Sequence record: MW269952.1
Origin: Escherichia phage P479
DNA: 64,000 nt
Reading direction: 5' to 3' (one strand)
The notes below the pieces were generated by a model that ran no database searches, was not told the DNA's origin, and was given only the letters and a program-made list of their open reading frames with translations. The translations under genes and the position numbers were made by a program. Below, piece by piece: positions 585 to 60,298 of this stretch; the stretch's first letter is position 1, and the number at the start of each line of letters is the position of its first letter.

Positions 585-622
585 CGCTTTAAAAATTTTA
601 TGTTATAATGGGGTCTAGGTCC
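585..622 (+). promoter_or_regulatory. middle-promoter-like element (variant MotA box cGCTTTA, 14 nt, TATAAT) with conserved downstream GGGGTCTAGGTCC
   Basis: Box at 585-591, TATAAT at 604-609, conserved core 610-622; member of the TATAATGG(T/G)TCTAG family seen at five sites in this window. Confidence 0.4.
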
Positions 623-656
623 TTTGGATAACCCCAATAACTAAGCGAGAAAAGAA

Positions 657-935
657 ATGTTTCCTACATATTCTGAAATTGTTAAAGTAGTTTTTAGTCA
701 GATTGTATCTGATTATCTATACGAAAGCGTCGACACGTCGACTGAACTAAAGGTGCATGGTCGTTTGTCTGCTATTCTGGAAATCATGTTCCCGGATGCA
801 GTTGATGCAATCACTGTTCAACTCACACCTGGTGCAGCATTTGCAATTGTTCCGTTTAAAATTGATAACCACATTTTGGCTATTTCATGCAAAATGGACT
901 TCCAGAAACAAACGGTAGTTGTCGAAGCAATTTAA
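657..935 (+). CDS. hypothetical protein
   Basis: ORF track, 92 aa; preceded by the promoter-like element at 585-622. Confidence 0.4.
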   Translation: MFPTYSEIVKVVFSQIVSDYLYESVDTSTELKVHGRLSAILEIMFPDAVDAITVQLTPGAAFAIVPFKIDNHILAISCKMDFQKQTVVVEAI

Positions 936-937
936 GT

Positions 938-966
938 GTTTACTTTCACCACGGATGGTGTATAAT
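938..966 (+). promoter_or_regulatory. T4-type early promoter (GTTTAC, 17 nt, TATAAT)
   Basis: gtttac 938-943, tataat 961-966; followed by the conserved leader cacatgaggaaaacaaaATG, which recurs at 11513-11536. Confidence 0.55.
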
Positions 967-995
967 GAATTTCATCAACACATGAGGAAAACAAA

Positions 996-1517
996 ATGAG
1001 TAATTTCTTTGAAGAAGGCAAGTTTTACAAGTTCGCATCTGAAAATGCCAAAAAACAGTTTATTGCCGGAGGCTGGGCAGCTAATTACCAAATTGCCAAA
1101 TACATCGGTATGACTCCGTTTGAAGTGAAAATTGTACCTGATACCGCGAGCGGTGGAAGAAAAGTTTGTGAGATACGTTTGATTGATGAAAATGATTTTG
1201 TGGATTTGGCAAAAATATCTGGTGCAGAAAACAGGCATCATGGAGCAATGTTTGTTTCTGCTGGTCCATTGTCTGATGAATTTGATTATTTCATCCGGGC
1301 AGAAGTTGGTGTTAAGCCAGAAGTTGAACCTGTGCCAGTGAAACTTGCATCAGTTTGGAAATTGCTTGTGGTTAAAAATGGCAAGATTGAGATTAACTCT
1401 CGTCATGTGTCAAAAGAGCGAGCGGAAGGCGAAGCAGAGCGTCTGTTAAACCGTGGTACTGCAGAAGATTGCTATATTATCAAAGGCGATATCACAAAAG
1501 CTTCTATCATTAAATAA
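996..1517 (+). CDS. hypothetical protein, 173 aa
   Basis: ORF track; strong RBS gaggaaaacaaaATG; no recognisable catalytic motif. Confidence 0.5.
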   Translation: MSNFFEEGKFYKFASENAKKQFIAGGWAANYQIAKYIGMTPFEVKIVPDTASGGRKVCEIRLIDENDFVDLAKISGAENRHHGAMFVSAGPLSDEFDYFIRAEVGVKPEVEPVPVKLASVWKLLVVKNGKIEINSRHVSKERAEGEAERLLNRGTAEDCYIIKGDITKASIIK

Positions 1518-1537
1518 GTAAAACAGGAGACAATCTG

Positions 1538-1783
1538 ATGCTTAGCGAAACCCCAATTACTGTTGAAGAGTTCCACGAAAAAGTGAAGGCATTTGCTCAA
1601 GCGATGATTAATCACGTATCAGAGCGATTCCCTGCTGCGACTTTGCAAGTTATTCAGGAATCTGCACGCAGTTTTATGATTGTCATTAATCCGAAAATTA
1701 CTCTAAAAGGTGGTGACCAGTTGACCCAACTGAAATTGGGTTCTGACGGTCTGGTTGAAGCGCAGCGAGTGTATATTCAATGA
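1538..1783 (+). CDS. hypothetical protein
   Basis: ORF track, 81 aa; RBS aggag upstream. Confidence 0.45.
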   Translation: MLSETPITVEEFHEKVKAFAQAMINHVSERFPAATLQVIQESARSFMIVINPKITLKGGDQLTQLKLGSDGLVEAQRVYIQ

Positions 1784-2115
1784 TGAATTTAATGGATATT
1801 TTTCAGGAAGCACTTAAAAATGATTTGGGTGACCATCGTAAGTTGGACCCGGAGACAGCTGCATTTATCAAAGTAACGCTTGCGAATGATGCTCTGTTTA
1901 AAAGTATTCACCCAAGTAATTATGATGCGGTTGTTATCACAGAAGCTCCTGTAGAAATTGGTGAGCGAATGTTTGGGGTGATTTTTGACGATAAGAAAAA
2001 ACGCTTCAGCGATGGTGATAGTATAATTACAACACATGTTAAGAGCATTACTAAATTGCGACATGAATTATATCGTGTTGAAACTATTAAAACCAATTAT
2101 CTCGTGGTGATGTAA
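1780..2115 (+). CDS. hypothetical protein
   Basis: ORF track, 111 aa; ATGA start/stop overlap with the upstream ORF. Confidence 0.45.
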   Translation: MMNLMDIFQEALKNDLGDHRKLDPETAAFIKVTLANDALFKSIHPSNYDAVVITEAPVEIGERMFGVIFDDKKKRFSDGDSIITTHVKSITKLRHELYRVETIKTNYLVVM

Positions 2116-2697
2116 ATGAAACCAACTACTGTTCTGCAAATCGCATACCTTGTATCTCAAGAATCCAAATGTTGCTCCTGGAAAGTGGGAGCTGTTATTG
2201 AAAAGAATGGTCGCATTATTTCTACAGGGTATAATGGTTCCCCTGCGGGTGGGGTTAACTGTTGCGAGCATGCGGAAGAGCAAGGTTGGTTACTGAATAA
2301 ACCTAAACCAGTTCTCATCCCTGGTCATAAGTCAGAATGCGTGAGATTCAGTCAGGTTGACCGTTTTGTATTGGCGAAAGCTCATCGCGAAGCTCATTCG
2401 GCCTGGTCAAAGAACAACGAAATTCATGCCGAGCTTAATGCGATTCTGTTCGCAGCCAGAATGGGTTCGTCAATTGAAGGCGCTACTATGTATGTGACGC
2501 TTTCTCCTTGCCCTGATTGTGCAAAGGCAATTTCTCAATCAGGAATCAAGAAATTGGTTTACTGTGAAACGTATGATAAGAATATTCCTGGTTGGGATGA
2601 TATCCTGAAGAACGCGGGAATTGAGGTGTTCAATGTGCCTAAGCGTAGTCTAGACAAATTGAACTGGGAAAACATTAACGAATTTTGTGGTGAATAA
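2116..2697 (+). CDS. cd: dCMP deaminase
   Basis: 193 aa; zinc-binding deaminase motifs CEHAE and PCPDC visible; recalled similarity to T4 Cd; synteny upstream of gene 31. Confidence 0.85.
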   Translation: MKPTTVLQIAYLVSQESKCCSWKVGAVIEKNGRIISTGYNGSPAGGVNCCEHAEEQGWLLNKPKPVLIPGHKSECVRFSQVDRFVLAKAHREAHSAWSKNNEIHAELNAILFAARMGSSIEGATMYVTLSPCPDCAKAISQSGIKKLVYCETYDKNIPGWDDILKNAGIEVFNVPKRSLDKLNWENINEFCGE

Positions 2698-2930
2698 TGA
2701 AATTTCGTCTAGTTAAGTTTTCAGGTCTGAACTCAAAAGGTGAAAACCTGGTAGCCTATTCAGTAGAATATAAAAAGTACTTTTTCTCTCGTTGGAAATC
2801 GTACTATAAATCCGAGTGGGTTCGCCCCGAAATGAACTATAAAACGGTGCCTATTCTTGAAAATTGCCATAGCCTATTAAGAGCTCTAAAAGAGCGTAAT
2901 GCAACAACCATTAAAACTGTTTTGGAATAA
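2697..2930 (+). CDS. hypothetical protein (positional equivalent of T4 31.2)
   Basis: ORF track, 77 aa; synteny between cd and 31. Confidence 0.4.
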   Translation: MKFRLVKFSGLNSKGENLVAYSVEYKKYFFSRWKSYYKSEWVRPEMNYKTVPILENCHSLLRALKERNATTIKTVLE

Positions 2931-2932
2931 TT

Positions 2933-3232
2933 ATGATTTTAACTGAACAAGAAACAATTCGTCTCCGTGAAAAAGTCAAGACTATTTTGTCTGTTGGTTT
3001 TCACGAAGTTCTGTTTGAAAAAGCAGATGGTAGCATCCGCCGTATGACTTGTACTCGTGACCTGGACCTGCTGCCGCATAAAGAAATCCAGACCCCTGGA
3101 CCAGAAGCCAATAAAGAACCAGTTAGCTATATCCGGGTATTTGATACCAAGCTTAATGAATGGCGTTCATTCTGTTTCAATAAATTGATTTCCGTGAATG
3201 GTCTGCAGACCGAGACTCTGCTTGTCCTTTAA
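2933..3232 (+). CDS. hypothetical protein (positional equivalent of T4 31.1)
   Basis: ORF track, 99 aa; synteny. Confidence 0.4.
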   Translation: MILTEQETIRLREKVKTILSVGFHEVLFEKADGSIRRMTCTRDLDLLPHKEIQTPGPEANKEPVSYIRVFDTKLNEWRSFCFNKLISVNGLQTETLLVL

Positions 3233-3287
3233 TGCTTCAAACGGTGCGTGTTATTATTAATACATGACCAAACAACATGGATTAAAT

Positions 3288-3611
3288 ATGGAATTACCAA
3301 TTAAAGCAGTAGGTGAATATATTATTTTGGTTTCTGAGCCAAAGCAAGCTGGTGATGAAGAAACTACGGCATCAGGTATCGTTATCGGAAAACTCCATCA
3401 GGGTGAAATCCCAGAGATGTGCGAAGTATTTTCGGTTGGTCCGGATGTTCCCGAAGGTTTCTGTGAAGTGGGTGATTTGACTCCTCTTCCGGTTGGCAAG
3501 ATTGCAAACGTTCCACATCCTCTGGTTGCTCTGGGACTTAAGCAGGCTAAAGAAGTTAAGCAGAAATTTGTGACCTGTCATTATAAAGCTGTTCCTTGTC
3601 TTTATAAGTAA
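3288..3611 (+). CDS. 31: co-chaperonin for GroEL (GroES analogue) gp31
   Basis: Translation ...[33 protein letters not shown]...[14 protein letters not shown] matches recalled T4 gp31. Start chosen at the internal ATG (MELPIK); the ORF-track start 3264 is the alternative. Confidence 0.8.
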
Positions 3612-3768
3612 AATTAGCGTTATAAATAATAATATGGATTGGCTGCCGGACCAGTTAGTTAACCGGAGAATCCTAAACGGTGGACTACAACTGAGAGACT
3701 TGCCGAAAGGAAGTGAAATTCAGAAGAACGTGTCCACCAAATATTCACCTCATATTGAGGCTTCTAAA

Positions 3769-4023
3769 ATGTCTTTAAACAAACAATTACAACACGCTCT
3801 TGAACTGCAACGCACTGCATGGAATAACGGTCACGAAAACTACGGCGCATCTATTGATGTTGAAGCCGAAGCACTGGAAATTCTGCAGTATTTCAAACAT
3901 CTTAACCCGATTCAAACCGACCTTCGTGCAGTGCTCGAAGCAAAAGATGAACTGAAATTTGCTAAGCCACTGGCATCTGCTGCCCGTAAAGCTGTTCGCC
4001 ATTTTGTCGTAACTCTGAAGTAA
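3769..4023 (+). CDS. rIII: rIII lysis-inhibition accessory protein
   Basis: About 84 aa from the internal ATG; position immediately downstream of gene 31 as in T4. Assignment by synteny and size. Confidence 0.5.
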   Translation: MSLNKQLQHALELQRTAWNNGHENYGASIDVEAEALEILQYFKHLNPIQTDLRAVLEAKDELKFAKPLASAARKAVRHFVVTLK

Positions 4024-4422
4024 TTTATTGGAGATTCACTGCCTTAGTGTGAGCTAAAATCGAGGAGCCGTCGAATTGTCTGATTAATGATTTGCGAATC
4101 ATTATAGTTTTAAGACCTCGGCAATTTTATGGTGTACCTCTTGAATGTTATTCTTATAGCGGCAAGTGCATGCTACCCCGAGGTGATGGCCAATCGGGAG
4201 TACGCCTCAAGGCCTATATATCCATCAGTATATATCTTATCCTCGAGAAATCGAACCCGGAACCTTTAAGCTAACGGTGTGCAACAGATAAGAGCTATAA
4301 GGTATGATGACGAGGTTTATGGTTATCCTGTCGTAAAATATCCGAAACCTAATGTTCCCTTCGAGGGCTTGCGCAGGCAATGTCAATAAGTCCTGCATTC
4401 TATTTTAAAGAGAATTTAATAT

Positions 4423-4581
4423 GGCTAAGAAAGAAGTTAAAGTTGTTGATGGCTCCTCCAAACGCGCTGGTTACAAGCGTGCGTCCAACAAGCGAATCAA
4501 TCAGGTGACTGATAAACTTCAGGCTCGTGCTCGTGCGGTATTGCGTGCCGATGCAGCTTGCTTTGGTAAGCCGAAAGCATA
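4423..4581 (+). CDS. small basic protein, 52 aa
   Basis: ATG at 4423 with upstream agag; MAKKEVKVVDGSSKRAGYKRASNKRINQVTDKLQARARAVLRADAACFGKPKA; followed directly by a terminator. Below the ORF-track size cutoff. Confidence 0.4.
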
Positions 4582-4587
4582 AGTTCA

Positions 4588-4615
4588 GGGACTCTTCGGA
4601 GTCCCTTTTTTATTT
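4588..4615 (+). terminator. rho-independent terminator
   Basis: ggactc-ttcg-gagtcc hairpin followed by a T-run (ttttttatttt). Confidence 0.7.
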
Positions 4616-4626
4616 TCCATAAAGGG

Positions 4627-4656
4627 GTTTACAACAGGGTTTGACCAGTACATAAT
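4627..4656 (+). promoter_or_regulatory. T4-type early promoter (GTTTAC, 18 nt, CATAAT) with conserved leader gattccatactgagtta
   Basis: gtttac 4627-4632, cataat 4651-4656; a near-identical cassette lies at 27629-27699. Confidence 0.55.
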
Positions 4657-4697
4657 GATTCCATACTGAGTTACCAAATAAAACACTGGAGAATAAA

Positions 4698-5066
4698 ATG
4701 AAAATCAATCTTAACTCATACATCAAAGGTAAAGACCACGACGGGTACAAAGCCATTGAAACTAAAGAAATGCAATGGCACTTGTATAAAGAACAATTTG
4801 AATTTGTTGGTTGCATGACTCCAGAAGGTCCTTCTGATGACTTCTCTTGGAAAATTATGGTAACAAACTTTTTTACTGGTGATACCTACGAACTGAAAAC
4901 TATCGTAACTGGTAAGATTCGTTGTAAGACCTATGAAGATGAAGAAACTGGTTATTCTGAAGATGTTACATGGTATCAAAATGGTCGCACCACTGCAGAC
5001 CTTCTGATTGAAAAAATGAAAGCTAAGGGTGAATTAAATTTAGATAATTGGATTAAAGTCGCATAA
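4698..5066 (+). CDS. hypothetical protein, 122 aa
   Basis: ORF track; RBS ggag upstream. Confidence 0.5.
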   Translation: MKINLNSYIKGKDHDGYKAIETKEMQWHLYKEQFEFVGCMTPEGPSDDFSWKIMVTNFFTGDTYELKTIVTGKIRCKTYEDEETGYSEDVTWYQNGRTTADLLIEKMKAKGELNLDNWIKVA

Positions 5067-5137
5067 AACAGTTTACTTTGGTACAGGTTATGATATTATA
5101 GACCTGTACCAACAAATGAAAACAACTGGAGAATAAA

Positions 5138-5503
5138 ATGAACTACATCAACTTTGAACGCAAATATGTTTCTAACTGCATCCCAGGTTCTTCTGAAGTT
5201 ATTTGCTTGTGGAAACATAAAAATGGTTCAGTGTGCGAAATTGAACAGTATATGACTCCTAACTACGTTTATATGCGATTTGAAAATGGTATCACCCTTT
5301 CAATCACTATGACTGGTTCAACCTTTAAAATTGCTTTAGATGATGATTTCCGTGAACGTGATTTAGGGACTCATCCTTGCTGGAATGGTGTTAATCGCAA
5401 GCTGTTGGTTAAAACTTGGATTCGTCACATCCTGAGCAACAAAGCAAAACCTGAACACCTGGAAGCAATCTTTGATGTAGTTCTTAATGAATTTGATATC
5501 TAA
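5138..5503 (+). CDS. hypothetical protein, 121 aa
   Basis: ORF track; RBS actggagaataaaATG is shared with the 4698 ORF. Confidence 0.5.
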   Translation: MNYINFERKYVSNCIPGSSEVICLWKHKNGSVCEIEQYMTPNYVYMRFENGITLSITMTGSTFKIALDDDFRERDLGTHPCWNGVNRKLLVKTWIRHILSNKAKPEHLEAIFDVVLNEFDI

Positions 5504-5539
5504 TCTTAAATGGGGCGAAAGCCCCTTGAGGAAAATACT

Positions 5540-5827
5540 ATGTTTATGACTACCTACTTTGATACACGCAAAAATTTCTGTGAAGTTGTTTTCTCTAAAA
5601 AAGGCCCTAATGTTCCTGCTGGGCGTGAACCAACTAAAGAATCCATTAAAAACTATGTGGATATAGTTTGCCCAGTTGAATTCAGGACTGTTAATGGATG
5701 TGATACCCTGGCAATCACCAAGCTTAGACGCGACATTGATATTGAACCAATTGCAGCACGTGAAATTAATTCGTCTGATATTAATGGCGGTAATGTTAAA
5801 TCACACGGTTTTCAGATGAGGTTCTAA
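5540..5827 (+). CDS. hypothetical protein
   Basis: ORF 5510-5827; internal ATG at 5540 has a better RBS (gagga). Confidence 0.4.
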   Translation: MFMTTYFDTRKNFCEVVFSKKGPNVPAGREPTKESIKNYVDIVCPVEFRTVNGCDTLAITKLRRDIDIEPIAAREINSSDINGGNVKSHGFQMRF

Positions 5828-6021
5828 TGCAACTATTCTTATCGCAAACTGTTCAGTTAAAAGGTGTGGGTATTCCTGGAATGATTTCTAAGGTTTTGCC
5901 TGCTTTTAAATTCGGTGGTATTGTAATTAAAGAAGCGTATCTAGTCTTGTGGGTTGATGGAACAGAAGACGTTCGCATGAGCGGTGAACTGTCTGTAATC
6001 AAATGTTTAAGGCGAGGATAA
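5827..6021 (+). CDS. hypothetical protein
   Basis: ORF track, 64 aa; coupled to the upstream stop. Confidence 0.35.
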   Translation: MQLFLSQTVQLKGVGIPGMISKVLPAFKFGGIVIKEAYLVLWVDGTEDVRMSGELSVIKCLRRG

Positions 6022-6022
6022 T

Positions 6023-6235
6023 ATGTTTAAGAAACTGATTCAGAAAATTTTGGGAACAGAAATGGTTGAAGTTACTTATTCAGTTATTGACCATAGTCCT
6101 TATCTTCAAGATAACAAAGAAAAAGTTATTAAAAAGATTATCCTTAAAAAGCATAACAGCTTATCTATTGAAGACCGTCTACCTGGTTATGGTCATTGGG
6201 CTGATGTAGATATTATCAGTGTCAAAGATGTCTGA
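6023..6235 (+). CDS. hypothetical protein
   Basis: ORF track, 70 aa. Confidence 0.4.
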   Translation: MFKKLIQKILGTEMVEVTYSVIDHSPYLQDNKEKVIKKIILKKHNSLSIEDRLPGYGHWADVDIISVKDV

Positions 6236-6686
6236 GTTAGAAATCAGAAGCAATTTCCCATGGCCGTCATGTGCATTAAGTAACTTTGCTAAATGGCCTT
6301 TTGTTATGGATGGCATCCAGTTTGGAGGTCTTGAAGGCTTCCTCCAAGGGTGCAAGGTGAGAAATAATGAACAACAAAAACGTATATTTGGGATGTCCGG
6401 ATTGGCCGCCCAGCAAAGTGGAAGAGCTTATGCAAGAGCTGCGGACCGTGGGACGCTTTTCTGGCGTGGAATTCCCTTTTCAAGATACTCTACAGCATGG
6501 AAAGAGTTGTATACAAATGCATATTTTGAAGCAGCGCTCCAAAACAAAGGATTCCGCGACGCATTACAAGCCACAAAGGGCAAAGTTTTAAAGCATTCGA
6601 TGGCGAGCCACCTTACTGTTCATGATACAATATTGACTGAACAAGAATTTATTGACATACTTAACCAATTGAGAGATGCATTATGA
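6228..6686 (+). CDS. NADAR-family (YbiA-like, DUF1768-type) protein; positional equivalent of T4 30.3
   Basis: Motif LSNFAKWPFVMDGIQFGGLEGFLQGCK matches the SNFA-WP...DG...E...K pattern of E. coli YbiA/NADAR as recalled; synteny in the 30.x cluster. Confidence 0.55.
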   Translation: MSELEIRSNFPWPSCALSNFAKWPFVMDGIQFGGLEGFLQGCKVRNNEQQKRIFGMSGLAAQQSGRAYARAADRGTLFWRGIPFSRYSTAWKELYTNAYFEAALQNKGFRDALQATKGKVLKHSMASHLTVHDTILTEQEFIDILNQLRDAL

Positions 6687-7531
6687 AACCCGTTATTTTA
6701 ACCGATATTGATGGCGTATGTTTGTCATGGCAGTCTGGCTTGCCTTATTTCGCTCAAAAATATAATTTACCCCTGGAACATATCCTTAAGATGATTCAGG
6801 ATGAAAAATTTGTGACCCCTGGTAAACTGTTCAATTGTGATGAAGAGTTAGGAGCGCAGTTAATTGAAAAATATAACTGTTCAGATTTTATTCGCTATTT
6901 GTCTCCTTACACAGATGCGTTAAGGGTTATTAATAACCTCAAAGAGCAATATGATTTTGTGGCTGTTACAGCCCTGGGTGATTCTATTGATGCTCGCCTG
7001 AATCGTCAATTCAACCTGAATGCTTTGTTCCCTGGGGCGTTTAAAGAAGTGATGATGTGTGGTCATACAGCCTCTAAAGAAGAGTTATTCCAGAAAGCGA
7101 AGACCAAATATAATGTCGTTTGTTATATTGATGACCTTGCACACCATTGCGACCATGCGAGTGAAATCCTTGAAGTCCCGGTTTATTGGATGGCTCGTGG
7201 TGAACGTGATGCTATTCCTAAAACAGCTTCCAAAGTTTTTAATTGGGACGATGTTGCTGGACAGCTTAAACTGAAACACAAAGATGAACCGGTCAAGCCA
7301 GAATACACCCCTGATGAACTCCGTAAACTGGACGAGCTGTTTCGTGAAACTCGCCGTCTTCAGCAGCAAATGCAGCAAGGCTGGCAGCCAGGTCAACCAT
7401 GGACTCCTGGATATAATCCAGCGTATCCATATCAATATAATCCAGCGTACCCATATCAATATGGTCCACGCGTAGGTACTGGCATTGAATATTGGTACAA
7501 TCAACCGACCGGTGGCCAAGGGGGTAATTGA
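6683..7531 (+). CDS. HAD-superfamily-like hydrolase with Q/P/Y-rich low-complexity C-terminal tail (positional equivalent of T4 30.2)
   Basis: N-terminal ILTDIDGV resembles the HAD phosphatase motif I (DxDG); C-terminus ...QQQMQQGWQPGQPWTPGYNPAYPYQYNPAYPYQYGPRVG... is encoded by a tandem 24-bp repeat. Confidence 0.5.
   Translation: MKPVILTDIDGVCLSWQSGLPYFAQKYNLPLEHILKMIQDEKFVTPGKLFNCDEELGAQLIEKYNCSDFIRYLSPYTDALRVINNLKEQYDFVAVTALGDSIDARLNRQFNLNALFPGAFKEVMMCGHTASKEELFQKAKTKYNVVCYIDDLAHHCDHASEILEVPVYWMARGERDAIPKTASKVFNWDDVAGQLKLKHKDEPVKPEYTPDELRKLDELFRETRRLQQQMQQGWQPGQPWTPGYNPAYPYQYNPAYPYQYGPRVGTGIEYWYNQPTGGQGGN
7414..7461 (+). repeat. tandem 24-bp direct repeat x2 (one mismatch) inside the 6683-7531 CDS
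   Basis: taatccagcgtatccatatcaata / taatccagcgtacccatatcaata; encodes the duplicated NPAYPYQY. Confidence 0.85.
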
Positions 7532-7809
7532 TGTTTGTCGTTCATACTATTTCAGACCATGGTCCAGTCACCACGATGGATTACGGTCATGTTAACCAGT
7601 TTATTCGTCATGTGAATCATAATTACTCGTTTGATATTAATCCGGCCAAGGATAACCCCATCTGGCGGGAATGTGTTGAACAAGGATTTATCTATGTTCA
7701 CTTCATGACTAAAATGAAACCAGATGGGGCGACTAAATTTGTGTTCACTTATCATAAGCGGTTGGATTTGCTTTTGGAAGATGTGGCATATAATAGAGCC
7801 AACGACTAA
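7528..7809 (+). CDS. hypothetical protein (positional equivalent of T4 30.1)
   Basis: ORF track, 93 aa; ATGA overlap with the upstream gene. Confidence 0.45.
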   Translation: MMFVVHTISDHGPVTTMDYGHVNQFIRHVNHNYSFDINPAKDNPIWRECVEQGFIYVHFMTKMKPDGATKFVFTYHKRLDLLLEDVAYNRAND

Positions 7810-7812
7810 GAG

Positions 7813-9351: not shown

Positions 9352-9352
9352 C

Positions 9353-9374: not shown

Positions 9375-9376
9375 AG

Positions 9377-11853: not shown

Positions 11854-12811
11854 ATAATATACGTTGACTTCCACCAGAGACTGTTCTCCCAGAACCAGTG
11901 AACGTATTGTACAGACTTGTTAATCCAGATTGAGCACCAGACAAGCGGCTCAATTTGGCAACTTCTGAGTTCAAGTTGTTATCTGAACTAATACCAGATA
12001 CACCCTTAATAACCTTATCTTCCAACCATTCCAATGCCGCAGCTCTTCCCACCGCACCAGTTGACATAACGCGATAAGCAAAAGTCACATCAAATGTAGC
12101 TATCTGATTATCCCCTTCATAGCTCAATTCAGGCGCAGATACACTTACAGGAACACAACCAGTTAACATAACAACCGTGTGCGGTAACCCATTACGTGAA
12201 TGAAGGTTAACCTGAATATCAGCTTCAACGTCTTCAGGCAAAGCCCTTAGCTGGGTAACTGGGTCCTGTACAGAGTTAACCCAATCGTTAAATGCTCTGA
12301 AGTTCCCTGCCTCTGAATCCATTCTAAAGCTCAATACCAACGGAGAATATTCTCTCCCGGTTATCTTGATATTTGGTGCATTATGGTTAAGGTCCATTTC
12401 GTAGTTCAATGTGTTATCCGGAAGCTTAACAGAGTGAACTAATAGACCAGCCGTTGGATATGCCATATTAAAGAAATCAAGTAGGTAAGTACCAACCTCA
12501 AATTCCCCCAATAATGATTGCACAACACGGTTACTCATTGCACCGATAAGATATTTGCTTATCCCTGATTTACGAATAAGCTTTTGTGTTCCGGCCGTAA
12601 CAAGAGTTGTTATCCCCTGAGTTAAGTCACCTTGTGTTAATCCGAACCAATCTGAGTTAACAGGAAGGTTACTGAATAATGCACCCCCGAACTGGTCCAG
12701 AAGATTCTGAGATTTGGAGGAAGGCGTGGTCGCGAAGACCACACTAAAAAGGTTATTCCTCTGCAAGTCGATATTAATCGCTTGTGTTTGAAATTCTTGT
12801 AAAGTAAACAT
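11852..12811 (-). CDS. 54: baseplate tail-tube initiator gp54
   Basis: 319 aa (T4 gp54 320 aa); synteny 54-48-29-28-27-51. Confidence 0.8.
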   Translation of the reverse strand: MFTLQEFQTQAINIDLQRNNLFSVVFATTPSSKSQNLLDQFGGALFSNLPVNSDWFGLTQGDLTQGITTLVTAGTQKLIRKSGISKYLIGAMSNRVVQSLLGEFEVGTYLLDFFNMAYPTAGLLVHSVKLPDNTLNYEMDLNHNAPNIKITGREYSPLVLSFRMDSEAGNFRAFNDWVNSVQDPVTQLRALPEDVEADIQVNLHSRNGLPHTVVMLTGCVPVSVSAPELSYEGDNQIATFDVTFAYRVMSTGAVGRAAALEWLEDKVIKGVSGISSDNNLNSEVAKLSRLSGAQSGLTSLYNTFTGSGRTVSGGSQRIL

Positions 12812-18719: not shown

Positions 18720-19109
18720 ATGAATATAAACAAAATGTATAGCGATGTGTCTCCCGACTTATCTACAAGTTGGGATAAAGACGTTGCTAAAGTAACTGGT
18801 GCAAGGTCTGTTAAGAACAGTCTTTTGGGAATAATCACCACAAGAAAAGGGTCAAGGCCTTTTATGCCTGAATTTGGATGTGATATAAGTAATCAGCTTT
18901 TTGAGAATATCACTCCATTAATCACAGATACCATTAAACGCAACATCGTCTCCGCGGTGCGGAACTTTGAACCAAGGATAAGCAATCTGCAGGTTGCAGT
19001 TGTCCCTATGTATGATGATAACTCCATTATCGTAACGGTTCAGTTCAGCATTGTTGATGACCCTGATACCCTCGAACAAATCAGGATTCAGCTAAGTCAA
19101 AACGGTTAA
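18720..19109 (+). CDS. 25: baseplate wedge protein gp25 (gpW/lysozyme-like fold family)
   Basis: 129 aa (T4 gp25 132 aa); synteny between 26 and uvsY. Confidence 0.8.
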   Translation: MNINKMYSDVSPDLSTSWDKDVAKVTGARSVKNSLLGIITTRKGSRPFMPEFGCDISNQLFENITPLITDTIKRNIVSAVRNFEPRISNLQVAVVPMYDDNSIIVTVQFSIVDDPDTLEQIRIQLSQNG

Positions 19110-19146
19110 TGCTTTAATTTTATGGCTGTATAATGGTTCTAGACCC
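19107..19146 (+). promoter_or_regulatory. MotA-box middle promoter upstream of uvsY (equivalent of T4 P_uvsY)
   Basis: aTGCTTTA box 19109-19116, TATAAT 19129-19134, conserved GGTTCTAGACCC 19135-19146; the same position as the classical T4 uvsY middle promoter. Confidence 0.6.
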
Positions 19147-19162
19147 TTACATTGGATACATT

Positions 19163-19597
19163 ATGAAAACAGAGATTGAATATAAGTTAGAAGTCTTTCA
19201 GGATGAGTTGGATGCAGATTTAAAAATTGATGGTACACAACTTCAATATGAAACACAAAACAACGTTTTGTTGCATAGCAAATGGTTGAGATTGTATACT
19301 AACTGCAAGAAAGAAATAATGCGTCTTGAGATTCAGAAGAAAACTGCACTGAAAAAACGACTAGACCATTATACAGGAAGGGGTGACCCAGGGGAAGAAG
19401 TATGCATGGATGTATACGAGAAGTCAGAATTGAAAACAGTCATGGCCGCAGATTCAAGCGTGTTGAAGATTGATACTTCAATTCAGTATTGGGCACTGCT
19501 CCAGGACTTCTGTAGCGCTGCATTAGATGGTGTTAAGTCACGAAGTTTCGCACTTAAACATATGTTAGAAATAAGACAATTTGAGGCGGGCAAGTAA
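19163..19597 (+). CDS. uvsY: recombination mediator UvsY
   Basis: Translation ...DGTQLQYETQNNVLLHSKWLRLY...LQYWALLQDFCSAALDGVKSRSFALKHMLEIRQFEAGK matches recalled T4 UvsY; start at the internal ATG. Confidence 0.85.
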   Translation: MKTEIEYKLEVFQDELDADLKIDGTQLQYETQNNVLLHSKWLRLYTNCKKEIMRLEIQKKTALKKRLDHYTGRGDPGEEVCMDVYEKSELKTVMAADSSVLKIDTSIQYWALLQDFCSAALDGVKSRSFALKHMLEIRQFEAGK

Positions 19598-25150: not shown

Positions 25151-25190
25151 TTTTGCTTCAAATAAAAATGCGGTATAATGGTTCTAGACC
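25151..25190 (+). promoter_or_regulatory. MotA-box middle promoter upstream of rnlB
   Basis: TTTGCTTCA box 25151-25159, TATAAT 25173-25178, conserved GGTTCTAGACCCC 25179-25191. Confidence 0.55.
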
Positions 25191-25273
25191 CCTTTGCGAC
25201 TATTAATTCCTTTCAGAGAAAGTATAGTGGGTCTAATTTATAATGATATTTATAACATCAAAAGTGAGAGATT

Positions 25274-34024: not shown

Positions 34025-34075
34025 CCCGTAGAACCGATTATGCTTTTATTTATAACACTGTATAATGGTTCTACG
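34025..34075 (+). promoter_or_regulatory. middle-promoter-like cassette (TGCTTTTA box, TATAAT, GGTTCTA) enclosed by a perfect 10-bp inverted repeat, oriented antisense to gene 18
   Basis: Inverted repeat ccgtagaacc (34025-34034) / ggttctacgg (34066-34075); box 34040-34047; TATAAT 34060-34065. The - strand also carries TATAAATA at 34046-34053. Confidence 0.45.
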
Positions 34076-34107
34076 GTTTCTAACTGATTAATTCTAAGCG
34101 ATGATAA

Positions 34108-47716: not shown

Positions 47717-47717
47717 G

Positions 47718-51813: not shown

Positions 51814-51841
51814 GGTTTCCTTAAAAAGCCTCCGAAGAGGC

Positions 51842-53788: not shown

Positions 53789-53796
53789 TTTATTTC

Positions 53797-54090
53797 CTAT
53801 TTTATAAAGACTTTTGATGAGGCTTGAGCCACAGTATCACCACATGAAATTGGGTCTGCCATTTGAACAGCTTTCTTACCGGTAACAAATACTTTTGATG
53901 TGCGCGGTTGTGTTACTCCGCCGTGAGTTTCATATGGTTTTTTAATTTCGGTATGCTCGGTAATAGGGTCTCCGGCAACTAACACCGGAATTCCCCCGGT
54001 GAATACTTTACCTTGAGTTGCATTAATTACAGTCGGTGGCCATGCTTCGTGGCCTGCTGTAACACATTGATTGAAACTTAATCCAGCCAT
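53797..54090 (-). CDS. 5.4: PAAR-repeat spike-tip protein gp5.4
   Basis: 97 aa; position downstream of gene 5; size equal to T4 gp5.4. Confidence 0.7.
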
Positions 54091-54611
54091 TAATCCCTCG
54101 CGTATACGTATGAACGCAGTTTATCTGCCCATCTTGACCAGTTGCCAACGATAGTTTTTGTGTAAACTTTTGTCATTGTTTTTCTTACTGGAGCAGGAGG
54201 TGGGTCGGTCTCATTACCTGCACGGCTATTACTGCCGCCAGAGCTCCCTGTGTCTCCACCAGAGCTCTCTTCTTGAAAGTCATAGGTCAGGGTTACCGTG
54301 TATGAAAAGACCTTCTGGAGGCTCGCTGGGGCCCTCCAGAGATACAATTGAGTACTCTTATCGGTAGGAAGGTCTTCCCATGAACCGGCAGTTTTGAATT
54401 CATCATTAAGCCGATATTTAAGTGCATCATCTGCGAATCCGAACACGGATTCGTAAACACCATAAAGATGATTCTCCTCAACATTAACGCCAGGGGTGGC
54501 CTCATATTCAGTTATATTTATTTCGACTAATGTTTCGTTTGTTTCTAATTGAGCTGTAAACGTAACATCGATTGAGGCTCCTTCCATGGAGTCTCCTAAG
54601 TCAGTGCTCAT
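54090..54611 (-). CDS. hypothetical protein (gene 5.1 position)
   Basis: ORF 54090-54671; start at the internal ATG placed just after the gene 5 stop. Confidence 0.45.
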
Positions 54612-54621
54612 TGGAAGTATA

Positions 54622-56364
54622 TTAGCCAATGTCAATCCTCGAACCATCAATAGTATATTGACCAGATGCAATAGAACTCATTGTTGACATTGTTTCGGAC
54701 CAATTGCCAGCCACGGTCATATCAACGTTTCCATTAACGGACCATTTGACATTACCATTTACCGTATAATCATGGTTACCTTCGACAAGAGTTTTTGCGT
54801 CACCTTTAACAGTTATTTCAGCATTACCTTCGACCAGAATACTTACATTACCTTTGACAATAATTGTACCGTCACCTTCAATGGTTTTGGTTTCATTCCC
54901 ACGAATATGAATGCTTTCGTTTCCATCGGTCTGACGACGAACGTTAGCCATATTGTAATAGGTTTCATCACCACCAACGTTGACTTTATTATTACCACCA
55001 ACATAAGTACTCGAATCACCCTGGGTCATATAATAACCATCAGCTACAGTCTTCGAAGTCTTACGACCATCCGGTGCAACTTCCTCGTAGGAACCGGTCG
55101 GGTGAATCAGTCGATAACGTTCTTGTCCAGGGGTGTTATCGAATTCCTGAACATGTCCGCCTTCAGTTTGCATTGTCTGCACATAAGGATATTCGCCCTT
55201 GTAACTGGATTCTGGCTCTTTAAATAGAATCCTCGTATCTTCTGGAGTCCACGGGTCGGCTGGGTCAGAATTTGTAGGGGCTGCAAAGGTTTGAATCATC
55301 CTATATGAACGTCCTTTAAATGACATTTCTTTAGGGGCCATAATACCATATGATTCCATGTTACCTGTGAGGATAATCATTGATACCCTTGATGCACGGC
55401 CTTTAGTTTGGTTAAACCATACAGAATCACGAGCGGCATCAAATGCTTTCTTATAATCTCCGGCTAACATTGCAGCGAGCATCGTTTTAAATTTAGCAAG
55501 CCCACTCAATCCCATTTGGAAAGCCATGTTTTCAAGAGCCATTTGTCTCGAACGGTTTTCTTTATTGTAAACTGGACCCACAACACTATGCCGGCCTATA
55601 TCGTTTTGTACTTTTTTAAGGTCTTCTTGGAATAATTTAGAGGCCTCGTCCATTGATATTGCACCAGGGTTACCTTTAACTTCACGACCTATTTGATTAG
55701 ATAATATTTTGTTTATCTGATTCATATCTCTAATAGGTTGTGGTGCAATTAAGTGTCCTATACCTATAGTAGGATAACCTTCGGTGTCCCAATATACTTT
55801 CAAACGAAGACCTTCATCACGGTGAAGCATATTTTCAATTGTGAAATTAGGATTATCATCTGGCTTAACTTGACTCAAATCAAGGCCATCGGGGTTAATA
55901 CCAAGGTCAAGGTTTGCATCCTGAATTACGTTCGAAGTTGCATCATAACCGACCTCACCGCCTCGGTTGAGCGCAGCAGCATCATTACCTACATAAAGTG
56001 GATATTGTCCTGTTGGGTCAGAGAATCCTTCGTTGGGATTTGCTTTTTGTCTTGAGGCTGAACCATATGTACCAATAACAAGCCCGTTGAGTTTCCACTT
56101 GTCTAAAAAGTGACCATATACTTGAGTCCCTGGCACCATACCGGTCATTGCAGTTTGAATACCAGAAACTGATGCAGATGATGTTGGCATCAATACAGAC
56201 ATCCATGGCAGGTCTTCAGTTCTGATACCTTTTACAGGCCCTTGCGATTTCTCATATGGATGCATACCCCATACACGAACACGAACACGACCTTGTTGAA
56301 GTGGGTCCATTCGGTCTTCGACAACACCGACGAACCAACTTACATTATCTGACATATTAATCAT
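54622..56364 (-). CDS. 5: baseplate central spike with tail lysozyme domain gp5
   Basis: 580 aa (T4 gp5 575 aa); C-terminal beta-helix repeats (VxGxxxxxV-type periodicity); synteny. Confidence 0.85.
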   Translation of the reverse strand: MINMSDNVSWFVGVVEDRMDPLQQGRVRVRVWGMHPYEKSQGPVKGIRTEDLPWMSVLMPTSSASVSGIQTAMTGMVPGTQVYGHFLDKWKLNGLVIGTYGSASRQKANPNEGFSDPTGQYPLYVGNDAAALNRGGEVGYDATSNVIQDANLDLGINPDGLDLSQVKPDDNPNFTIENMLHRDEGLRLKVYWDTEGYPTIGIGHLIAPQPIRDMNQINKILSNQIGREVKGNPGAISMDEASKLFQEDLKKVQNDIGRHSVVGPVYNKENRSRQMALENMAFQMGLSGLAKFKTMLAAMLAGDYKKAFDAARDSVWFNQTKGRASRVSMIILTGNMESYGIMAPKEMSFKGRSYRMIQTFAAPTNSDPADPWTPEDTRILFKEPESSYKGEYPYVQTMQTEGGHVQEFDNTPGQERYRLIHPTGSYEEVAPDGRKTSKTVADGYYMTQGDSSTYVGGNNKVNVGGDETYYNMANVRRQTDGNESIHIRGNETKTIEGDGTIIVKGNVSILVEGNAEITVKGDAKTLVEGNHDYTVNGNVKWSVNGNVDMTVAGNWSETMSTMSSIASGQYTIDGSRIDIG

Positions 56365-56996
56365 AATGCCTTCCTCTGTTTTAAAATATTTTTAACTATG
56401 GAAATATTATGCTCACATATATTTCGATTGAATTGGTAAAAATCAAATCCTAACTTTTTAATATGTCGAGACACATAACGGGTTTCAACCGACGTTGGTA
56501 TAAACCCCATGTTCTTAGTTATTGTCTGCTCATTTTCAAAATGCTTTTTAAGCTTATCAGAAAGAATCTTCTTTTTCTCTTCTGAACATTTTTTGCCATA
56601 ATTTGGTGCATTTACTCCATGCTGGTCTCGCTTTTTTCCATACATGGGATTATTTTTACCTGAGTTATTTGCACTCATAATATCTTTAGTTTTCTGGCTA
56701 TGTTTTCGACCTTTAAAGTTATCATGTTTTAAAAATCCACCGGAGCCGCCTGGTTTTAAATTGTATGAGTTTTCATTAAGAACAACAAGTTCCTTTTCAA
56801 GTTCATACATTTCTTGTTTGGAATCAACAAATTTTAATATTTCTTTTTTGAAATTTTCAATGCCATATTTTAGTATGGCACGTTTAATTAATTTACCTGA
56901 GCCCATATATCCATCATCCATATTTGATGTACTATGCGCCCCGATATAAAATTTGCCGTTAATATTATTGGTTATTTTATATACATAATAAAACAT
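56361..56996 (-). CDS. GIY-YIG homing endonuclease (Seg-like) inserted between genes 53 and 5
   Basis: N-terminus YYVYKITNNINGKFYIGAHS is a GIY-YIG motif; NUMOD3-like repeats (NPMYGKK, NAPNYGKK); start and stop overlap the neighbouring genes. Confidence 0.75.
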   Translation of the reverse strand: MFYYVYKITNNINGKFYIGAHSTSNMDDGYMGSGKLIKRAILKYGIENFKKEILKFVDSKQEMYELEKELVVLNENSYNLKPGGSGGFLKHDNFKGRKHSQKTKDIMSANNSGKNNPMYGKKRDQHGVNAPNYGKKCSEEKKKILSDKLKKHFENEQTITKNMGFIPTSVETRYVSRHIKKLGFDFYQFNRNICEHNISIVKNILKQRKAL

Positions 56997-57598
56997 TAGA
57001 GTGCCTTTTCCATTTCACGGATTAATGCCGAAATAAATGATTCGATATCATTAGGGTCGATTATCTTTATTTCTCGTTTATATTCATTTTTACGAATAGC
57101 ATCTTCATAGATATCTACTGCAGCTAATGGACCTTCATATTGTGGGTACAATTTATTCTTATCACCTTTATCATACCAGGTGTACGGATTATCAGGATAA
57201 GAAACAAGATTCCAGAATTTTTCACCATCTTCATTTACATGATAAAGAACCTGATTACCACCTATATTCGAATAGCGTTGAATTGATGCCTGATACGATG
57301 ATTCTTGTGAACATATCCAACCATAATACGGGTCATAGATATCATTAAGCATAAGGAGAACCCAATAGAGTTGAGTATTACCATAGAGCTGATATGCAAG
57401 TTCTTCAGGTCTTGGAGCTCCAGCGATGTAATATGTTTTCGGTGTATAATTAACCGCAACCTTATCAAAATAGGCGCGATAGTTTCTGAAGATGTCAGTC
57501 ATTGGGATGCTTAAGACGTCTTCTTTCGTTAATGATGCCGAGTTTTTTCTGATTGTTTTAGCATCATAATCAATTGGGTTAAAAAATGAAAAAAGCAT
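56996..57598 (-). CDS. 53: baseplate wedge protein gp53
   Basis: Start at the internal ATG (MLFSFFNPIDYDAKT...) matching the recalled T4 gp53 N-terminus. Confidence 0.8.
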   Translation of the reverse strand: MLFSFFNPIDYDAKTIRKNSASLTKEDVLSIPMTDIFRNYRAYFDKVAVNYTPKTYYIAGAPRPEELAYQLYGNTQLYWVLLMLNDIYDPYYGWICSQESSYQASIQRYSNIGGNQVLYHVNEDGEKFWNLVSYPDNPYTWYDKGDKNKLYPQYEGPLAAVDIYEDAIRKNEYKREIKIIDPNDIESFISALIREMEKAL

Positions 57599-57610
57599 AA
57601 AGCCTCCATT

Positions 57611-57618
57611 TATAAATA
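57611..57618 (+). promoter_or_regulatory. T4-type late promoter for gene 4
   Basis: tataaata 28 nt upstream of the gene 4 ATG, with RBS aggagg. Confidence 0.55.
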
Positions 57619-57646
57619 AGTATATCAATATTTATTAGGAGGCTAT

Positions 57647-58099
57647 ATGGCATACTCCGGGAAATGGCAACCTAAAAACGTTGCAAAGTACAAAGGAGAC
57701 TGGAAGAAAATTACCTACAGGTCAAACTGGGAAAAATTTGTATTTAACTGGTTGGATAATCATCCAGATGTGGTGCAATGGGGGTCAGAGACCGTTATCA
57801 TTCCATATTTTAGTAATGCGGATGGTAAAAAACGCAGGTATTACATGGATATGTGGGTAAAATTTTCAAATGGTCAACAATTTTTCTTTGAGGTTAAACC
57901 CAAAAAGGAAACAAGACCTCCAGCAAAACCAGTTAATACGACCGCTGCGAGCAAGAAGAGATTTATGAACGAAATGTATGTTTGGGCTGTTAATTCGGAT
58001 AAATGGAAAGCCGCTCAAGCTGTAGCTGATAAAATGGGCATCCAATTTAGATTGATTACTGAAGATGCACTTAGGAAAATGGGTTATAAGGGTTTATAA
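57647..58099 (+). CDS. 4: head completion protein gp4
   Basis: 150 aa; MAYSGKWQPKNVAKYKGDWKKITYRSNWEKF... matches recalled T4 gp4; divergent from gene 53 as in T4. Confidence 0.75.
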   Translation: MAYSGKWQPKNVAKYKGDWKKITYRSNWEKFVFNWLDNHPDVVQWGSETVIIPYFSNADGKKRRYYMDMWVKFSNGQQFFFEVKPKKETRPPAKPVNTTAASKKRFMNEMYVWAVNSDKWKAAQAVADKMGIQFRLITEDALRKMGYKGL

Positions 58100-58746
58100 T
58101 GTATACGGTATATCAAATAACAAATAAAATTAATAACAAAATTTACATCGGTGTGCACAAAACCGACAATATCGATGACAAGTATATGGGCACAGGGAAA
58201 TTAATATTAAAAGCTCATAAAAAATATGGTATTGAAAATTTTCAAAAGGATATTTTATTTGTTTTTGATTCCATCAATGAATCAGAGAACGAAAATTTAG
58301 CCTTTGCTAAAGAGGCTGATTTAGTCGACCAAGAATTTGTTAATCGGCCCGACACGTACAACATTGATTTGGGTGGTAGAGGCGGTCGCGGCCGCTCCGC
58401 TTCTGTTAGAAAACGTATTGGTGATGCCCAGCGAGGAAAACCTGGTAAAAAACCATCAAAAGAATCTCGTTTAAAAATGAGTTTGGCACACAAGGGTAAA
58501 AAATTATCCGAAGAACATAAGATAAAAATTGGCAATGCTGGCCGTGGTAAAAAGCGTCCTGAAAGTGCAAATGAAGCGGTTAGACAACATTTATTAGGGG
58601 TTCCTCGTAAAGAAGAACATAAAAATAATATGAGAATTGGTTTTCTAAATACACCTACCAAAATATGTCCACACTGTGGATTAGAATGCAAACCAGCCCC
58701 ATTTAAAAGATGGCATGGCGATAATTGCAAAGCGAGGAAAGGATGA
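58099..58746 (+). CDS. GIY-YIG homing endonuclease (Seg-like) inserted between genes 4 and 2
   Basis: N-terminus [19 protein letters not shown] is a GIY-YIG motif; NUMOD3-like repeats; C-terminal CPHCG...HGDNC zinc-finger-like; overlaps the gene 4 stop and gene 2 start. Confidence 0.75.
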
Positions 58747-59570
58747 GTATTTTTACATTTATCAATGAATCTGCAGATAAACCAGGTCCGAAACCCAGTA
58801 AATCAGAACAACAATGGGTTGAAATAGGGGTTGAATTTTATACAGCAAAAGAAAAGGGAATGACCTCGAAGAAGTTTGCTGAAGAGAAAGGAATCAACTA
58901 TTCGACCTTTACCAAAAGCATGTCAAGATATCATTCGAGAATTCAGACTGCTTATAAAGTATCCAAGCTCAAAAAGAAACCTGCCGGTAAACTTACGAAG
59001 GCTGAACGTCAGCTGATAATGGTGAATAGCTTTAGAAAGAGCATAAGAGATAAGATTGCTAACGAAGGCGCTGCAAGCAACACCAAATCTGCCAGATGGT
59101 TCGCTGAGACAATTAAGAAATCAGTTCGTGGTCACGTAACGGCTAAACCTCAACCGGGTAAGATTTATGCTTATATCTATGATGCAAAGCATAAGGATAC
59201 TCTTCCGTACTGGGATAAATATCCGTTAATCATTTATCTTGGGCTAGGTAAGCACAATTTGATGTATGGTTTGAACTTGCACTATATTCCACCGAAGGCA
59301 CGTCAAGAGTTCCTTGAGGAACTTCTTAAGCAATATGCTAATACTCCTACGATTACGAACAAGACTCATCTGAAGATTGATTGGTCAAAGGTGAAGGGAT
59401 TTAAAGGGGCTGACCAGATGATTAAAGCATATATACCTGGCAATATAAAAGGTACTATTACTGAAATCAAGCCCAGCGACTGGGCAAACGTTGTATTACT
59501 CCCCCTTCAGCAGTTTTTTTCAAAAGGCAAAAGATTTTCTTCACAGAAAGTATGGAGAAATTCACTTTGA
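58743..59570 (+). CDS. 2: DNA end protector protein gp2
   Basis: About 275 aa from the internal ATG (T4 gp2 274 aa); synteny 4-2-3-1. Confidence 0.75.
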
Positions 59571-60226
59571 ATTATCAGTTTATATATTCATCGTTAATTG
59601 AAAGGGCCCGTAACAGGGCCCTGATTTCATATAAAGAATCTCATCACATCATTCCGAAATGTATGGGCGGTTCAAATGCTCCGGATAACCTAGTCGATTT
59701 GACTCCCGAAGAACATTATGTAGCCCATCAACTATTGGTTAAAATATATCCTACAAATCCAGGTTTAAGTTTTGCTGCCACATCTATGAGCCAGTCAAGC
59801 AAGTATTTGAAACGCAATAATAAATTATTTGGCTGGTTAAGACGCAGACACGCTGACAATATTTCTAAAAGCCAAACCGGTAAAGTTTACTTTAATAATG
59901 GTGTCAAATCGATAAAACTATTTCCATGGGAAGATGTTCCGGATGGGTTTGTCAAAGGAAGACATTACAGTCCAACCAAGGGTACAAAACATTCTCGCAA
60001 TAATGGACATTTTAAAAATAAAGAGATTCAGGATGAATTGAGAAAGCGCCGGTGGGAAAAAGATAGGCAAGAAATGTGTAAAAACTTCGGAGTTGATACC
60101 ATCGAGCAAGCTCGAGAGTTGGTCCTAGCATATAAAAAGGAATTGCATCCTCGATACTGGGTAAAGCCAATGTTGGAACGTTATCCGTTTATGACTAAGC
60201 TAAGACTTAACACATTAATAAAATAA
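59552..60226 (+). CDS. HNH-family homing endonuclease (Mob-like) inserted between genes 2 and 3
   Basis: [30 protein letters not shown] motif; paralogous to 20422-21207 and to the partial gene at 1-118; overlaps the gene 2 3' end. Confidence 0.7.
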
Positions 60227-60261
60227 TCTATTATCGGTCAGTGTTATTGGTATGGACAAAA

Positions 60262-60298
60262 GGTCTAGAACCATTATAACACTGATTGTTTTAAAGCA
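60262..60298 (-). promoter_or_regulatory. middle-promoter-like element on - strand (TGCTTTA box, TATAAT, GGTTCTAGACC), antisense to the upstream HNH gene
   Basis: Reverse complement reads tttgctttaaaacaatcagtgtTATAATggttctagacc, with the same box-to-TATAAT spacing as the other family members. Confidence 0.4.

Follow-up and report, generated by a model that had tools for sequence, protein, structure and literature searches.

A conserved subclass of putative MotA/AsiA-dependent middle promoters with a fixed start-site block in Escherichia phage P479 and other T4-like phages

Introduction

Middle promoters of T4-type phages are usually described as a MotA box joined to a -10 element. The present study analyzes five promoter-like sites in a stretch of 64,000 nucleotides (nt) from Escherichia phage P479 (MW269952.1), hereafter the window, in which a MotA-type box and a -10 element are followed by a conserved block lying across the predicted transcription start. 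The five sites are very probably MotA/AsiA-dependent middle promoters of a conserved subclass. The consensus for middle promoters is (a/t)(a/t)(a/t)TGCTTtA-N11-13-TAtaAT, with the box centred near -30 (PMC1524935), and the starts mapped in T4 include those of PuvsY (115371), PnrdC.7 (53325) and P34i/oriG (153011) (PMC2988021).

Several other described systems resemble these sites in part. For sigma70 RNA polymerase (RNAP), the described determinants of the start site are a 7-bp distance from the -10 element, a pyrimidine at -1 with a purine at +1, a non-template G at +2 and a GGG-type discriminator (PMC5730371). T4 origins of the oriF/oriG type need about 100 bp comprising a middle promoter and an A+T-rich unwinding element, and the rules by which R-loops form there are an open question (PMC3016281). 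PeSL and PmSL elements (Arbiol 2010; Comeau 2014) are similar to the present sites in being short, multi-copy, conserved intergenic promoter modules, the MotA-box version PmSL having been reported in vibriophage nt-1 (PMC4122927); PeSLs differ in having a stem-loop just upstream of the promoter and in being clustered in hyperplastic regions beside indels.

Results

The five sites had been proposed in a first-pass annotation of the window, and direct reading found all of them, with 14-15 nt between the end of GCTT and TATAAT in 5/5, as had been claimed (Table 1). The MotA box reads (T/C)GCTT(T/C)(A/T) throughout, the -10 element is a perfect TATAAT in 5/5, and the spacers from box to -10 element, counted after the 9-mer, are 12, 12, 13, 13 and 13 bp for sites 1 to 5. 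Box, spacing and -10 element match the T4 consensus, in agreement with the MotA/AsiA middle-promoter reading first given to them, and the CGCTT of site 1 is shared with the verified T4 promoter PnrdC.7. Direct reading found no TTGACA-like hexamer at 16-18 bp spacing at any of the five sites, and no -35 element was called at sites 4 and 5 by a sigma70 consensus scan, which argues that there is none at these two. MotA bound to the (T/C)GCTT box near -30 would substitute for the sigma70 contact with a -35 element.

Table 1. Coordinates of the five promoter sites and of a nearby predicted hairpin and inverted repeats in the window.
Feature	Position	Strand	Details
Site 1	583..622	+	Box AACGCTTTA 583-591; TATAAT 604-609; GGGGTCT 610-616; predicted start A617
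Site 2, PuvsY ortholog	19108..19146	+	Box AATGCTTTA 19108-19116; TATAAT 19129-19134; GGTTCT; predicted start A19141
Site 3	25152..25192	+	Box TTTGCTTCA 25152-25160; TATAAT 25174-25179; predicted start A25186
Site 4, orphan	34039..34076	+	Box TATGCTTTT 34039-34047; TATAAT 34061-34066; predicted start A34073
Site 5 (named P3as), orphan	60262..60300	-	Box TTTGCTTTA 60300-60292; TATAAT 60278-60273; predicted start A60266
rnlB leader 5'-terminal hairpin (predicted)	25186..25234	+	AGACCCC pairs with AGTGGGTCT at 25226-25234; -12.0 kcal/mol
Perfect 10-bp inverted repeat CCGTAGAACC / GGTTCTACGG	34026..34076	.	Encloses site 4
Perfect 10-bp inverted repeat TCAGTGTTAT / ATAACACTGA	60238..60285	.	Spans the -10 element of site 5 and the first ~28 transcribed nt

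After TATAAT the sites continue as GG(T/G)TCTA. An exact 13-mer (TATAATGGTTCTA) is common to 4/5 sites and a stretch of 17 nt (TATAATGGTTCTAGACC) is identical in sites 2, 3 and 5, while the pattern TATAATGGKKYTA gave 4 exact matches compared with a mean of 0.03 in 100 shuffles, 0/100 of which reached 4. The shared core first described after TATAAT holds as such for sites 2, 3 and 5; site 1 has one additional G (GGGGTCTAGGTCC), and site 4 keeps the core up to TCTA and diverges afterwards (CGGTTTC). Spacers between box and -10 element, as well as flanks, are dissimilar between the copies in the window although -12 to +1 is invariant, which argues for selection on the core and not for recent duplication. 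Two further matches were rejected as promoters: one at 2230 is coding sequence for Tyr-Asn-Gly in cd and is found in T4 cd too, and a near-match at 19373 (-) has no MotA box. The latter belongs to TATAATGGTCTAG at 19355-19373 (-), antisense within uvsY, a copy of the core with one base deleted.

Absence of motA and asiA from the genome, which the first-pass annotation had named as a case against its own reading, is not what the closest complete genome suggests. That genome, of phage TH41, encodes both (tblastn), with a full-length MotA having 32% identity to T4 MotA over 207 amino acids (E = 5e-26) and an AsiA having 52% identity (E = 2e-22); the two genes are positioned outside the stretch that matches the window.

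The sequence after the -10 element had been described as lying outside the T4 middle-promoter consensus, and this is borne out, as in most of the 58 T4 middle promoters mapped the discriminator is rich in A/T and the block is missing. The further suggestion of an extra recognition or RNA element survives in part: because -12 to +2 matches all described sigma70-RNAP start-site determinants (compared with PMC5730371), no new element is needed for this portion, but about +3 to +10 is still unexplained. The A at +1 lies 7 nt after the -10 element (8 nt at site 1), and +2 is G at sites 1, 2, 3 and 5 and C at site 4. Similarity to the rules for sigma70 region 1.2 and the core recognition element, as in promoters of the lambda PR type (GATAATGGTTGCA), consists in the GG after the -10 element, the 7-bp start and the bases at -1, +1 and +2; these rules differ from the pattern seen here in covering -12 to +2 only, and not +3 to +10 or its co-variation among lineages. 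The discriminator of lambda PR, GGTTGC-A, is nearly identical. An NAD-capping promoter context was considered and set aside, since a pyrimidine at -1 is not the favoured context.

The downstream half of the sites would thus form a near-ideal core, with a consensus TATAAT, a discriminator opening with GG, a pyrimidine at -1 and A at +1, and this arrangement would be expected to set the start at the A of TCT-A and to give strong, long-lived open complexes. Sites 1, 2 and 3 would drive cd.3, uvsY and rnlB, respectively, site 2 being the ortholog of the T4 oriF primer promoter, and sites 4 and 5 would be orphans, giving antisense transcription into gene 18 and into an HNH open reading frame (ORF; gene 2 in relatives). 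In phages of this type the early promoters have G-N-W-Y-C-Y-A after the -10 element, and the subclass thus has the appearance of a MotA box joined to a near-optimal core of the early type. Early-type promoters of the form GT(G/T)TAC(A/T)-N16-17-TATAAT were seen at 938, 5071, 11473 and 62276 (+); they have short inverted repeats around the -10 element, e.g. GTGTAGG...CCTACAC at 62276, and resemble PeSL modules of other T4-like phages. The 13-mer also occurs in unrelated metagenomic phages without MotA-type spacing, as UP-TTGCTT-N17-TATAATGGTTCTA. Metagenomic contigs of ~35% GC (L024, L052, L064, L066, L023 and L060) have multi-copy AAAAAA-CTTGCTT-N17-TATAATGGTTCTATG promoters in which the predicted start is the ATG, so that the mRNAs appear to be leaderless.

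Four MotA-type sites in T4 share this core, and the subclass is therefore not specific to P479. These are PuvsY (TATAATGAATCTAAGTCC), the oriF promoter, of which site 2 is the positional ortholog; PnrdC.7 (TATAATGGTTCTAAGCCC), whose ortholog is a sixth copy outside the window (TH41 92211); 11885(+), antisense between srd and modA; and 75988(+), antisense between genes 3 and 2 (TATAATGGGTCTAAGTCC). The last is the ortholog of site 5, for which a T4 counterpart was sought at the gene 1/3 junction, where there was none, and was found at the gene 3/2 junction. In the T4 record NC_000866, 11885(+) and 75988(+) each comprise a MotA box, TATAAT and TCTAAGTCC on the late-gene strand, and neither is in the table of 58 promoters (PMC2988021) or in either of the T4 database records checked. 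The mapped starts of PuvsY, PnrdC.7 and P34i/oriG all coincide with an A 7 nt after TATAAT, i.e. the A of TCT-A. PuvsY and PnrdC.7 are similar to the window sites in having the MotA box at about -30, a spacer of 11-13 bp and a sigma70 -10 element with no -35, as well as a TCT-A start and an initial transcript that is C-rich and then T-rich. What differs from T4 is the block itself, GGTTCTAGACC in P479, its number of copies (5 in the window and ~8 per TH41 genome), and the cd.3, rnlB and 18/19 copies, which are present in this lineage and not in T4. The ~8 members found across the TH41 genome are the five window sites together with 92211, 128364 (-), which is the srd/modA orphan, and 157893, which is the oriG ortholog and a looser match. 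The nrdD middle promoter (TH41 98386; T4 PnrdD start 46440) reads TATAATGAATCTGACAC in either phage, similar to T4 PuvsY and more loosely related to the core.

To follow the promoters over greater distances, DNA adjoining gp25 and gp3 was taken from IMG/VR. A MotA-type promoter with TATAAT-GG(T/G)(T/C)(C/T)T-A follows gp25 in Gaprivervirus, Dhakavirus (JS98), T4-like, CC31-like, Moon-like and Acinetobacter phages, and P3as, antisense and divergent from gene 3, is of the same type in nearly all these lineages, including the Acinetobacter phages. A search of the literature on JS98 middle promoters found none. About 8-10 nt beyond +2 are conserved as lineage versions, which read GACC(C)TTT in P479, AAGTCC.TCC in T4, GAGTTC in CC31-like phages, (N)GGT in JS98-like phages and CCGGTTCACC in Acinetobacter phages. 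PuvsY and P3as, although ~40 kb apart, carry matching lineage-specific versions of the block, and over -6 to +10 their similarity is greater within genomes than between genomes (exact permutation p = 0.0028, 7 lineages). Acinetobacter phages such as Kimel have five near-identical copies of ~100 nt in each genome, of which one follows gp25 and another is at gene 3. Some of the Acinetobacter copies (L072, L057 and L077) have a strong hairpin with a T-run ~150-170 nt downstream (AAAGGAGCC...GGCTCCTTT), which suggests a small non-coding RNA; an Rfam scan of the window and of the Acinetobacter repeat loci gave no match.

P479 is a Gaprivervirus, and the window matches phages TH41, UPEC01, SP18 and VR20 of this group at 95-97% identity. 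The GC content of the genome is 40%, and the + strand of the window corresponds to the early/middle (-) strand of T4. Neighbouring genes were assigned from the SP18 annotation and by tblastn against T4. Site 1 precedes a cd.3 homolog (ORF 657-935), the flanking ORFs matching T4 cd.4 and cd.3, and as T4 has no counterpart at this position site 1 is a lineage-specific extra copy. Site 2 comes directly after the gp25 stop codon (19107-19109) and before uvsY. The longest uvsY ORF, which has the start annotated in SP18, opens at the ATG of TATA-ATG-G within the -10 element and discriminator (window 19133-19165); this SP18-type ATG precedes the predicted transcription start at 19141, and the true start codon is probably the ATG at 19163. 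Site 3 precedes rnlB (start codon 25274), and the T4 PrnlB is located elsewhere and is without the core. Site 4 lies in the interval from gene 19 to gene 18, two - strand genes, and points antisense into gene 18; no T4 counterpart was found in the gene 18/19 region, and the nearest following + strand gene is ~23 kb off in TH41. Site 5 is intergenic, between the stop of the HNH ORF (60226) and the true gp3 start (60312); it points away from gp3, in antisense to the HNH ORF, or to gene 2 in TH41, where there is no HNH insertion. Downstream of sites 4 and 5 there is no gene on the strand of the promoter. Two ORFs are not in TH41, a GIY-YIG (Seg-like) homing endonuclease between genes 4 and 2 (58099-58746) and the HNH endonuclease between genes 2 and 3 (59552-60226), which lies ~40 nt downstream of the predicted start of site 5. 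Sites 1-4 are within blocks collinear with TH41, and only site 5 adjoins an insertion, that of the HNH ORF.

A predicted hairpin accompanies site 3, and inverted repeats accompany sites 4 and 5 (Table 1). The degenerate extra copy of the core noted in the first-pass annotation at 25224-25236 is present as sequence but lacks a MotA box; since it complements the 5' end predicted for the rnlB leader, it is better regarded as the 3' arm of a 5'-terminal hairpin. This pairing is retained in TH41, VR20 and SP18 and in divergent leaders of the VR25/VR26 type. The repeats at sites 4 and 5 surround the promoter instead of preceding it. A late-promoter-like TATAAATA at 34054-34047 (-), upstream of gene 19, is positioned in the spacer of site 4 and in the loop of its repeat. 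Relatives also carry an inverted repeat at this position of the P3as locus, with arms that differ in sequence and co-vary, which points to a hairpin in the sense-strand late mRNA or in DNA. In Dhakavirus and 175-kb relatives (L184-L191 and L219), a repeat of 10-11 bp surrounds the antisense gene-3 promoter, with arms TCCTAGCCAGT/ACTGGCTGGGA and TCCCGGACAGT/ACTGGCCGGGA.

Discussion

By every sequence criterion the sites belong to the T4 middle-promoter family. What is new is a subclass with a fixed start-site block, antisense members that occur also in T4, and unexplained co-variation. MotA dependence and start sites of the orthologs PuvsY and PnrdC.7 were shown experimentally in T4 (PMC2988021, Table 1), and we infer promoter activity, start sites and strength in P479. 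Several observations weigh against assigning all five sites to MotA and AsiA, or against regarding known promoter contacts as sufficient. The motA and asiA genes do not lie within the window, and the only genome in which they were found is that of the closest relative (TH41, 97% identical), whose MotA is no more than 32% identical to that of T4; the MotA box of site 4 ends in T instead of A, and its spacer overlaps a late promoter of the opposite strand; and sites 4 and 5, with no gene downstream, have no evident coding purpose. Contacts with RNAP also leave the conservation past +2 unexplained, and the stretch concerned differs between lineages yet agrees between distant copies of one genome.

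For the orphan transcripts we infer a role either in middle-time antisense transcription or as oriG-like R-loop origins. It is possible, if rather doubtful, that antisense regulation is the role of the orphans (the srd/modA copy as well as sites 4 and 5), which would silence or clear convergent transcripts, from late genes 18, 2, 4 and 34 or from the toxic early genes modA and modB, through transcriptional interference or double-stranded RNA. Each orphan (34073(+) and 60266(-) in the window, 128364(-) in TH41, 11885(+) and 75988(+) in T4) is located just past the 3' end of an opposite-strand gene and would fire back into that gene, synteny of the positions extends from T4 to the Acinetobacter phages, and 22 antisense start sites were reported by a differential RNA sequencing (dRNA-seq) study of T4. 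Terminator scans gave nothing convincing downstream of the orphan sites, and the first 60-160 nt of 13 predicted transcripts had no common RNA fold, individual 5' hairpins being restricted to the rnlB leader and T4 P3as, which argues against a discrete small RNA from the orphan sites and is consistent with antisense action. However, antisense regulation would leave unaccounted for the same core in the copies that drive genes.

A role for the subclass as origin-type promoters, with transcripts forming persistent R-loops that prime replication and with orphans as unrecognised origins, is compatible with their being MotA promoters but appears unlikely. Site 2 is the ortholog of the oriF promoter and is syntenic with the T4 rep_origin oriF, and sites 4 and 5, as MotA promoters antisense among late genes, are similar to oriG, whose promoter P34i is antisense inside a late gene and, in both T4 and TH41, has the TATAATGG that is found in these sites; the oriG core (GGTCCCAGAG), however, is only loosely similar. 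Among 22 strict MotA+TATAAT sites in TH41, a GG discriminator was present in 4/4 antisense or orphan sites vs 5/18 sense sites (hypergeometric p = 0.017, with uvsY reclassified as sense), and insertion of the HNH gene ~40 nt past the start of site 5 would confine conserved function to the promoter and the first ~40 nt. On the other hand, the T4 copies at 11.9, 53.3 and 76.0 kb are not at the annotated oriA (16.76 kb) or oriE (79.36 kb) and the 40-nt windows downstream have 0.6-0.8 A+T, the same as the rest of the genome and intergenic DNA, both of which weaken the case for origins; an A+T-rich unwinding element was accordingly rejected as an origin signature, the values of 0.6-0.8 at all sites not being discriminating. 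The predicted leaders are G-poor and C/U-rich, which would not favour R-loops, and the PnrdC.7, cd.3 and rnlB copies resemble ordinary gene promoters. No motif is common to all T4 origins, according to a review (PMC3016281).

The co-variation of the block could possibly be caused by gene conversion or by co-evolution with a trans-acting partner. Gene conversion is plausible in the Acinetobacter phages, where the spacers are identical, while the sharp-edged identity and dissimilar spacers in P479 favour a trans-acting partner there. One form of the latter, in which -6 to +10 is an operator or recognition site bound by a co-evolving phage factor (protein or RNA) that switches the promoter set jointly, is quite unlikely. 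It would account for the greater similarity of the block within genomes than between them, across versions that read GGTTCTAGACC in P479, TCTAAGTCC in T4, GGTTTTGAGTTC in CC31-like, GGTCCTA.GGT in JS98-like and GGTTCTACCGGTTCACC in Acinetobacter phages; the edges of identity are sharp, unlike leftovers of recombinational homogenisation, and the block lies across the start site, where operators are typically found. But the quasi-palindrome GGTTCTAGACC is limited to this lineage, others being direct-repeat-like or asymmetric, the Moon-like lineage does not co-vary, the Acinetobacter repeats extend over ~100 nt including spacers as gene conversion would predict, the sample is small (7 lineages), and the factor is hypothetical. 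A palindromic operator (GGTTCTAGACC) was ruled out as a general explanation because the palindrome is not kept in other lineages, and an opposite-strand late promoter was rejected as the cause of conservation because it occurs at site 4 only. Somewhat unlikely, too, is the joint proposal that -6 to +10 is a distinct cis-element, with a co-evolving factor, that defines a regulon of MotA promoters with non-coding jobs, these being R-loop origins like oriF and oriG or antisense control of late or toxic early genes. If this were true, two members in T4 would have gone unrecognised, their starts being predicted near 11897(+) and 76000(+), and the 'rules' that govern origin promoters, which for T4 are listed as an open question, would gain a sequence component.

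Least likely, and indeed improbable, is that the core reflects common descent and not function, as mobile promoter cassettes of the PeSL/PmSL kind spread and homogenised by recombination: multi-copy cassettes including MotA-type PmSL are described in T4-like phages (PMC4122927), three copies (cd.3, rnlB and 18/19) are extra relative to T4, an HNH insertion adjoins site 5 and the Acinetobacter phages have five near-identical ~100-nt copies per genome, but spacers and flanks are dissimilar among the window copies, four positions are syntenic over very deep divergence, sites 1-4 are not beside TH41 alignment breakpoints, and the defining stem-loop just upstream of the promoter is not present, an inverted-repeat search having found none upstream of sites 2 and 3. 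The sites are thus not PeSL or PmSL elements as defined, as they have no upstream stem-loop and most are not at indel junctions; what is conserved here is -10 to +10, with repeats around the promoter only at the orphan sites and several copies syntenic in core regions.

Regarded as a conserved subclass of MotA/AsiA-dependent middle promoters, the sites have some immediate uses. One concerns annotation, since the uvsY start codon given for relatives precedes the probable start of transcription; the cores are also predicted to be strong and to start precisely, which may make them of practical use. For the biology of T4-like phages, the subclass adds a fixed discriminator, start site and initial-transcript block to the description of middle promoters as a MotA box and a -10 element. 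It has syntenic members from T4 to Acinetobacter phages, and includes the oriF promoter as well as antisense promoters not found in the published T4 promoter list or in the T4 database records checked, providing testable candidates for antisense regulation or for further R-loop origins in the best-studied phage, and the lineage-specific co-variation of the block could point to a new regulator.

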